64,000 bases of DNA from an uncultured Candidatus Micrarchaeota archaeon. GTDB taxonomy: Archaea > Micrarchaeota > Micrarchaeia > Anstonellales > Bilamarchaeaceae. Shown here one piece after another: positions 30,001 to 33,000 of the stretch. The position numbers were made by a program. The stretch spans positions 928,001 to 992,000 of the forward strand of contig OY970229.1 of NCBI GenBank assembly GCA_963714085.1, given 5' to 3'. Position 1 is the first letter of the stretch. The number at the start of each line of letters is the position of its first letter.

Positions 30001-33000
30001 GGGTACTGGTGAACCAGCACGAGCGGGTGAGGCTGATGGAGGAGGCGGCGAGGAAGCGGATAGAACGCGTTCCTCTTCTCAAGGACCCGCCGAAGATCGT
30101 GGCCGATGCCGGCAAGAGGCTCGTCGCCGAGCTACCGAAAAGCGACCTTCCCCAGATACAGGTGAAGCCAGGGGATTACCCGCCGTGCATAATCAAGCTC
30201 CTCGACAGCGTGAAGAAGCACGAGAACCTCAACCACCAGGCCAGGTGGCTGCTCTGCGTCTACCTCATGGCCGCGGGCCTGAGCGACGAGGAGATAATCG
30301 GGCTGTATTCCAATCTTCCGGACTTCTCCGAGAGGATAACCACCTACCAGGTGCAGCACGCCAGGAAAAAGGGGTACACCGTCCCGGCGTGCGCGACCAT
30401 AACGACTTGGGGCTTCTGCTGCGCCGACTGCAGGATCGGCTCGCCGCTCTACTGGCGCGGGAAGGGAGTTTCCAAATGAACGCCAATGAAATCGTGCTGG
30501 CCACGTTCCGCAAATACTACGAGAACGCGGAATTCGACATCCCCTCCATAGAGCAGAGGGAGTTCGGCATAGGCAACAGGAAGAAGATAGACTCCAGGCA
30601 CCTGAATTTCGCCAGCACGGCCGAGTTCAGGAGCTATCTGGTGTCCAACACGCCGCTGTTCGTCTCCTTCTCCACTGGCTATTACCGCTATCCCGGGGCG
30701 ACCCCGATGCAGAAGAAGGTGTGGACCGGGGCTGACCTGGTCTTCGACCTTGACATCCACGCGGAAGGCAAATACGGGGCATATGCGTTATTGGACAAGG
30801 TCAAAGCGGACGCGATACGGCTCATGGACATGCTGAAGGACGATTTCGGCATCTCCGGGAAGGAGATCCACGTGAACTTCTCCGGCAACCGGGGCTACCA
30901 CGTCCACGTCCGGGACAGGTCGTATCTCGAGATCGGGTCGGACGAGCGCAAGGAGATCGTCGACTACATAATGGGCATCGGGCTGGATTATCGGGCTTTC
31001 TTCGAGCCTGACTCCAAAAGGCCCAACGACAGGATAGAGCGCGGTCCCAGGCCAGACGAATGCGGCTACCGGGGCAGGTTCAGCCGCGCGGTGATAACGG
31101 AACTTGAAAACGATCCGAAGTCCCTATCGCGCGTTTTCGCGAAAGAGGAGACGAGGAAGCGCCTCATCGACGGCATAACGGCCGGGAACTGGAACAGCCA
31201 GCCGTTCAAGGTCAATGATTTCCTCGGCCGGCTCGCGCCGATTGCGGCGAAACTCGGATTGTCCAGCGTTAACACGGACGCGGGCGTGACCCAGGACCTC
31301 TCCAAGCTCATAAGGGTGCCGGAGTCCGTGCACGGCGACACCGGCCTGATCGCCAAGAAAGTGAGCGATATCAACAAGTTCGAGCCGTTCAGGGACGCGA
31401 TGCTGCCCGGGCCTAGCGGATCGTTGAGACTCAAGTTTATAGAAGACGTTCCTCAATTGGTTCTGGCGGGCGAGAGCGTCGGACCGTTCAAGAAAGACGA
31501 GGAAAAAGAATTCGAAAAATCCGCTGCCCTTTTCTATGTGCTCAAGGGCAGCGCGGAAATAAAGGAATAAACTATTTCTTGTCCGACTTCTTCGGCATCT
31601 GTATCCTCTGCGGGAGGTACGGGGCCGCGAGCCCGAGCACCCTGGCCACCAGCGTGCCGTTGACAGAGCCCGAATAGTTCACGGTGGTCAGGATGCTGTC
31701 GGCATAGCCCTCCGGCAGCCTGTGGTTCCTGTCCCACTCGTTCTTTATCTGGTCCGCGAGCTTCTTCTCCTCCTTGGCGTATAGGATGCCCTTTATGGTG
31801 ATGTAGCCTATCTTATCCTCGTAGTTGGCCGTGTACTGGTATCTCAGCTCAATGTCCCCGCCTTCGACCTTGACGTCCATTATGGAGATGTCGACATTAA
31901 GGTTGGTGTATCCTTCCGTCTTGTCCTTTTTGCTCGACACTTCGAGTATCCTCTCTCCTGTTATTGGCATATTTATCCCTCCTTGATTCGTGGAATACGT
32001 ATCCCAGGAAAGGTATTAAAACGATTAGGGAACCCGGACTTCCACTATTCTTATTAAACCTTGCGTGAGAAATCACCCCATGGTTTCTTTTGATCAAATC
32101 CTCTCAAGGCAATCCATCTTCAGGGATCAGTCCGTGCTCTCGCCGCACTTCGTCCCCAGGGTGCTGCCGTTCAGGGACATGCTGATCTCCGAGATAATGA
32201 CCTCCGTGTCCCCGGCCCTGAAAGGGAGGAAGCCGAGGAACCTCATACTATACGGGGCGACAGGCACAGGCAAGACCGTGAGCATGAAGCGGGTGATGGA
32301 GGAGTTCCAGGCGCAGAAGGCCGGCATACCCATGTTCTACCTCAACTGCAGGATATACAACTCACGCTACCGCATATTCCAGAAGGTGCTCAAGGAGCAT
32401 GTGCCAGAGATCGAGAAGTCCGGCTTCGGGCTGCCTTTCCTCTATGAAAAACTGCTCGAGCTGGCGAACCAGGGCCGGCAGCTGGTGATCGTGCTCGACG
32501 AGATAGACATGGTGAAGGACCTGGACGACCTGGTGTACACGCTCACCCGCGCCAATGACGAGCTCAAGGCCGGCGGGATATCCATAGTCGGCATATCGAA
32601 CAAGATATCATTCAAGGAGAAGCTGGACCCCAGGAGCCTCTCGAGCCTGTACGAGACCGAGCTCATGTTCCCGCCATACACGTCCGACCAGCTGCAGAGG
32701 ATCCTGTCCCAGAGGGTGAAGGACGGCTTCCAAGACGGGGTGGTCGAGCAGTCAGCGGTGAACCTGACCGCGGCCATAACCGCGCAGGACTCCGGGGACG
32801 CCAGGTACGCGCTCAAGCTCCTGCTAAAGGCGGGCGAGATGGCGGAGCAGGGCAACAGGAAGAAGCTGACAGACGAGGACGTGGAGGCGGCACGGCGCAA
32901 GGTCGAGCTTGACCTGGCAGCTGAGACCATGTCCACGCTGCCGGAGAACCACCAGGTGGTGCTCTATGCCATAGCCAAGCTGTCTCTCAGCGGCTCGAAA

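Follow-up and report, generated by a model that had tools for sequence, protein, structure and literature searches.

SecB of Proteobacteria (PF02556; E. coli 1qyn/5jtl, H. influenzae 1fx3/1ozb) is an acidic protein that, according to PMC4257090, assembles through strand β1 and helix α1. The same source and PMC3581621 describe HasA secretion as a case in which SecB needs no SecA and functions solely by binding its substrate, and toxin-antitoxin-chaperone (TAC) systems as cases in which a SecB paralogue is specialised for what an adjacent gene encodes. An archaeal SecB-like protein from an organism without SecA has already been reported: MJ0357 of Methanocaldococcus jannaschii is reported to be 18% identical to E. 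coli SecB and to have similar properties (Ha et al. 2004, as cited in PMC4361572). Archaea are said to lack SecB in a preprint (10.1101/202358). Haloarchaea perform post-translational Sec export, and the chaperone of unfolded precursors (in H. volcanii) and the substitute for SecA are both described as unidentified in PMC6098224, a review of archaeal cell surface biogenesis.

In this study, we analysed a window of 64,000 nucleotides from the genome of an uncultured Candidatus Micrarchaeota archaeon. It contains g0842 (31572..31970, minus strand; 132 aa), the core, or housekeeping, copy of an archaeal SecB-fold family. The surrounding replication genes are given as context: orc1/cdc6 (32080..33264, plus strand) is divergent from g0842 across 109 bp, with no functional link claimed, the DNA primase small subunit gene priS (30479..31570, plus strand) is convergent with it, and the large subunit gene priL is found at 29550..30479 (plus strand). 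Among the 58 loci of the closest named relatives, which range from 77% down to 42% identity with g0842 and are mostly labelled Micrarchaeota, the others being unclassified or loosely named archaea, cdc6 is present at 38 and priS at 45. No RNA holder is on record for the g0842 locus. A paralogue, g0902 (127 aa; contig positions 1028307-1028690, plus strand, outside the window), starts 35 bp after a giant ORF of 1721 aa (contig 1023106-1028271, plus strand, also outside the window) that has no family match. As the genome-wide survey's note had claimed, both proteins are unannotated and related to each other: they are 25% identical (tblastn E 1e-11), and no model of Pfam or NCBIfam reaches its cut-off with either of them. 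Among the matches listed for 138 family members, no family of these two databases recurs.

An AlphaFold2 model of g0842 built from 23 sequences (pLDDT 82.5, pTM 0.74) shows four strands (residues 3-15, 24-36, 39-50 and 55-66), an extra helix (69-82) that carries W79 and a long helix (87-112), followed by the P117 loop and a low-confidence basic tail. The four-stranded sheet and the long helix are shared with proteobacterial SecB, as is the size of about 130-155 aa. The family differs by the extra 14-residue helix before the long one and by having no confident counterpart of the SecB C-terminal helix α2, which was sought: no helix is modelled after residue 112, where pLDDT drops to 41-66. Both differences would count against a SecB-type holdase. 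The best Foldseek match of the model was Rv1957 (5mtw; E 4.3e-4, prob 1.00, TM 0.51-0.65), followed by H. influenzae SecB, E. coli SecB, 2o2a and 2hng. VIA-align, which is independent of Foldseek, placed three SecB-type chains first among 48,161: Rv1957 (Z 10.4, rmsd 2.9 Å, 118 aligned residues), a second chain (Z 9.6, rmsd 3.8 Å, 118 aligned) and the bacterial, streptococcal 2o2a (Z 8.7, rmsd 4.4 Å, 110 aligned); the next chain, an unrelated one, reached Z 5.8. Clear fold matches comprise SecB-type proteins only, phage SecB-like proteins included, which speaks for a holdase. The pLDDT of 85 given in the earlier survey came out slightly lower here, but its top matches, Rv1957 and SecB, were recovered, and the SecB fold of g0842 is confirmed for the predicted model.

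A homotetramer model of g0842 scored 0.84; three controls were run alongside, and the highest of them scored 0.00. In the calibration of this score, which is only rough for four copies, 20 of 30 solved homodimers and one of 23 single chains attained the mark applied. Across the runs, contact agreement was at least 86% and pLDDT at least 84. The predicted assembly is a SecB-type dimer of dimers held by strand 1-strand 1 and long helix-long helix contacts (interface residues 7-16, 91-113 and 116-125), and this interface matches the β1/α1 assembly described for SecB. The predicted tetramer is in favour of a holdase; its score could stem from likeness to solved SecB structures.

From the fold, the predicted tetramer and the gene context, we infer a chaperone. 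On balance, we lean towards a family of ATP-independent tetrameric holdases that would form an archaeal structural branch of SecB and in which the paralogues would be reserved for giant clients that are exported. Four monomers would form the dimer of dimers, each strand 1 pairing with strand 1 of its partner and the four long helices packing centrally, and the grooves of this assembly may bind unfolded chains, blocking their folding or aggregation until release. Release would take place without SecA, towards SecY/SRP or towards folding and quality-control machines. The g0842-type gene, a single-copy gene retained in at least three DPANN phyla, would encode the general form, and duplicates of the g0902 kind would act as private chaperones of the giant exported proteins encoded beside them, a specialisation on a neighbouring gene's product for which the TAC chaperones provide a precedent.

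With a close and with a broad profile alike, the family was found in 150 of 151 Micrarchaeota genomes and in 86/86 genera, a tally that includes the unpublished genome G029. The sole genome without a match (G017) is a draft, 95% complete and in 50 contigs. The near-universality first noted in 100 of 101 genomes is therefore borne out, and such retention in small genomes supports a holdase. The survey's picture of a core gene in two paralogues stands for this genome, where the broad 138-sequence profile gave exactly two matches, g0842 and g0902 (other tblastn matches had E 0.26 or worse), but it is not typical of the phylum: a second match is lacking in 128 of the 151 genomes, and families f9 (45/45) and f10 (25/25) are strictly single-match. 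Additional copies are concentrated in the family to which the window's genome belongs, and they go along with giant genes.

The family also proved wider in archaea, a point that the survey had raised. A Micrarchaeota-only profile detected a member named as Nanoarchaeota (P0195, E 1e-17) and one named as Ca. Aenigmarchaeota (P0209, E 1e-13), so that the family spans at least three DPANN phyla. The Micrarchaeota and non-Micrarchaeota groups of the family aligned at 99.8% in hhalign, and ESM Atlas clusters also point to members beyond Micrarchaeota. Searched against 1.84 billion representatives, the broad profile retrieved 1,165 clusters (50% identity) at E ≤ 0.001, of which the best 150 were inspected. 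A first metagenome scan for the family found nothing. Viral contigs gave three weak partial matches (E about 1e-4), and none of four plasmid records (M. jannaschii, Thermococcus, Haloferax and Methanohalobium) matched, which has no bearing on the chromosomes of these organisms. Small hypothetical proteins of a similar kind may exist in Thermococcales.

The lack of SecA emphasised in the survey was reproduced, with SecA_SW matching none of 61 phylum genomes and being matched in 10 bacterial controls. It is no special feature, however: SecA_SW was also missing from all four archaeal controls (0/4), and its absence is therefore ordinary for archaea. The only SecA_DEAD match is indeed the Hef-type helicase of 498 aa (53753..55249, minus strand), which is not SecA. 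SRP54 was found in 101/101 genomes, therefore no targeting gap has to be filled, which argues against a holdase in export. Compensation for a loss of SRP was rejected as a role of the family, given SRP54 in all 101 genomes and the presence of SecY and FtsY in G000.

Gene adjacency and clade pairing bear on the paralogues. In 14 of 17 cases, the non-core copy lies at the 3' end of a gene of 1,400-2,900 aa, co-directional or convergent with it, an arrangement that favours dedicated holdases. These 17 copies were chosen as second matches in their genomes, some of the giants are split into two ORFs, and the count leaves out L125 (a single ORF of 258 aa in which the domain is split), L129 (a core copy) and the pair L108 and L109, which duplicate L128 and L127. 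Several paralogues are convergent with their giant and not co-transcribed with it, which weighs on the other side. A rapid IQ-TREE phylogeny with 63 rows grouped 13 of 15 giant-locus copies into three starred clades (SH-aLRT 99, 97 and 96) with one giant family each, again as expected of dedicated holdases, and g0902 clustered (SH-aLRT 97) with copies whose adjacent giants are homologous to the 1721-aa ORF; support in this tree is SH-aLRT without bootstrap, and the placement of long rows is unsure.

A phylum-wide search for giants, which covered families c69 and c38, detected c69 in 9 and c38 in 7 of 151 genomes. At least two SecB-fold matches, which are not to be read as copy numbers, occurred in 14 of the 15 genomes with c69 or c38 versus 9 of the 136 genomes without them, a further point for the holdase; when six seed genomes were left out, the proportion among c69/c38 genomes was 8 of 9. 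The corresponding Fisher p-values (6e-13 overall, 9e-4 within the family) are overstated because the genomes are related. For c69, the paralogue is directly downstream of eight of nine giants, and the ninth giant ends at a contig edge. Such paralogue-giant pairs provide named chaperone-client hypotheses for undescribed DPANN proteins.

Several giants have N-termini that resemble signal peptides by eye, C-terminal regions rich in Gly and aromatic residues, and F, W or Y as last residue. In the G000 giant, no hydrophobic N-terminal signal is evident, which counts against an exported client of a holdase, and the predicted fold of its C-terminal 604 aa was unusable (pLDDT 42.7). The unannotated giants of families c38, c85 and c194 (loci L114:183-14431, L115, L116, L117, L118, L122, L124 and L127) resemble one another at the N-terminus, and in many of them amphipathic beta-like segments precede a last residue that is F, W or Y. 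These ends may resemble outer-membrane beta-barrel signals; the idea that the C-terminal regions of giants could be membrane beta-barrels is a lead only. A broader proposal, of which we are doubtful, is that the family represents an archaeal post-translational export chaperone, an ancient counterpart of SecB that would be core across DPANN and perhaps further and would feed SecY without SecA. Its duplicates would co-evolve with giant exported proteins, maybe beta-barrels, in a SecB-dependent export route for outer-membrane-protein-like giants involved in host contact. Of note, directly upstream of the series of unannotated genes whose last members are the giant and g0902 lies a 619-aa frame (contig 1014006-1015865; L126:14007-15866; outside the window) in which a prefoldin subunit is fused to FtsY. 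The prefoldin frame measures 99-185 aa in the other 25 genomes of the family, and the fusion, present in one genome out of 26, could result from misassembly or from read-through of recent origin.

Neighbours of the core copy differ between lineages. polB is directly downstream in seven of eight loci of families f9 and f10, the gene lies between cdc6 and primase in f1, and cdc48 is directly downstream and co-directional in three of seven metagenome loci outside Micrarchaeota (Cdc48 confirmed for two); a metal-dependent hydrolase gene and pth2 are found in other lineages. In the loci examined, secY was not found beside the core copy and the recurring neighbours are replication and housekeeping genes, which argues against a holdase working in export. 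The cdc48 and polB adjacencies, the cdc6-primase flanks and the intact SRP would suit a core copy that is a cytosolic quality-control or assembly holdase or adaptor, one that passes its clients on to Cdc48/VAT and the proteasome or keeps replication proteins stable, with no export role and with only the duplicates recruited to giants. We think this unlikely, as the neighbours vary by lineage in the way expected of an unlinked housekeeping gene, and the divergent cdc6 and convergent priS of the window are not operonic with g0842. The neighbour pattern of the core copy is that of a housekeeping gene and names no partner, and this archaeal housekeeping context is a further difference from SecB. 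On Nanoarchaeota-type contigs, a SecB-fold gene was seen directly upstream of cdc48/VAT at L132:3797-6573, L133:179-3207 and L136:818-3065.

The composition of the family also departs from that of SecB. In contrast to the acidic SecB, it is neutral to basic, with a median pI of 8.5 for 138 members and 9.5 for nine rows of the non-Micrarchaeota type versus 4.5 for nine SecBs, a difference that we counted against a holdase. SecB has an acidic SecA-binding sheet face (D20, E24, L75 and E77); in the family, mixed or basic residues occupy the outward positions in strands 1 and 4. Conserved features include basic positions 15, 73, 80-84 and 122, W79 in the family-specific extra helix, Y50 and the P117 loop. 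The SecB fold might accordingly have been repurposed as a non-chaperone scaffold, either a basic tetramer whose ligand is nucleic acid or one constant acidic partner, or a component present in stoichiometric amounts in the complexes of the giant proteins; the replication-gene neighbourhood and the database entries of the solved streptococcal SecB-fold proteins 2o2a and 2hng, both listed as of unknown function, would agree with it. We judge a scaffold to be quite improbable. Mean column identity across the family is as low as 23%, a value more in keeping with binding of low specificity than with a fixed interface, and to our knowledge all SecB-fold proteins tested to date showed chaperone activity.

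At the level of profiles, the g0842 family and SecB remain apart. PF02556 has no match in the genome of g0842, even at E ≤ 1, and is absent among the best 25 of 65 families listed for the 138 members. Aligned by hhalign with a nine-sequence SecB profile, the family gave a probability of 1.8% (E 0.028), the best member scored 6.7 bits on the SecB profile versus 3.5 for reversed controls, and a family profile search of PDB sequences returned nothing significant. This want of a sequence-level link counts against a holdase, and homology to SecB would be a matter of fold alone. The family is not a member of PF02556, because neither a profile match nor a SecA partner was found when both were looked for; it may nevertheless work like SecB. 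Identities of 6-14% to the SecB-type structural matches, rmsd values of 2.9-4.4 Å and the missing profile-level homology are what an analogous likeness would give, in which a simple four-strand sheet plus helix is uninformative on ancestry or function. This reading is very improbable in our view: the top three Z-scores are all SecB-type and well above the rest, the same quaternary geometry is predicted, and the loop that follows the long helix, G/N-L-x-x-P, resembles by eye the G-x-F-P-x-L of SecB. It is also disfavoured by DUF1149 (PF06619), a bacterial family which we take to have the SecB fold and which was the nearest named family in a language-model search (0.88, a lead only); PF06619 did not match g0842 at cut-off and is absent among the best 25 of 65 Pfam families listed for the 138 members.

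A TAC-type chaperone, suggested by Rv1957 being the best structural match, is hardly credible and was rejected on gene context: no toxin or antitoxin gene recurs beside the family in the loci examined (ORFs of at least 70 aa), the paralogues adjoin giant genes instead, a plasmid collection queried with two family members gave no match, and the core gene is near-universal and single-copy whereas TAC systems are sparse and mobile according to PMC3581621.

The survey had also suggested that the family may be the MJ0357 clade. PF02556 matches the M. jannaschii control genome above cut-off, as it does E. coli and Caulobacter; the output does not name the matched gene, which is presumably MJ0357. 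Because PF02556 recognises M. jannaschii above cut-off but does not see the g0842 family, identity with MJ0357 is indirectly disfavoured, and from these profile matches the family is probably not the MJ0357 clade. Relative to MJ0357, the novelty lies in an archaeal SecB-fold family of near-universal, single-copy occurrence that escapes Pfam and includes putatively client-linked paralogue clades. In the literature outside subscription papers and supplements, we found no description of a SecB-fold core gene of DPANN; arCOG or protein-family tables in studies of DPANN genomes may number it. With 1,165 clusters at 50% identity, the family constitutes an unmodelled core marker gene, and a core gene of the reduced genomes of DPANN that encodes a small, soluble SecB-fold protein offers a testable candidate for the anti-folding chaperone still sought in archaea.

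Some members deviate in length. Eight (P0135, P0155, P0158, P0163, P0167, P0174, P0177 and P0185) measure 200-250 aa, with long low-complexity extensions at the N- and C-termini, and two others, of 255-258 aa (L125:3917-4693 in G110, and P0055), have about 120 extra residues inserted within the SecB-fold domain. Elsewhere in the window, two unannotated ORFs of 394 aa (33349-34533, plus strand) and 294 aa (27106-27990, minus strand) have no Pfam match at cut-off. Near tfb (37530-41855), ORFs for an RNase H-like/PIN-like protein and for a type I-like methyltransferase form what appears by eye to be a small defence island.
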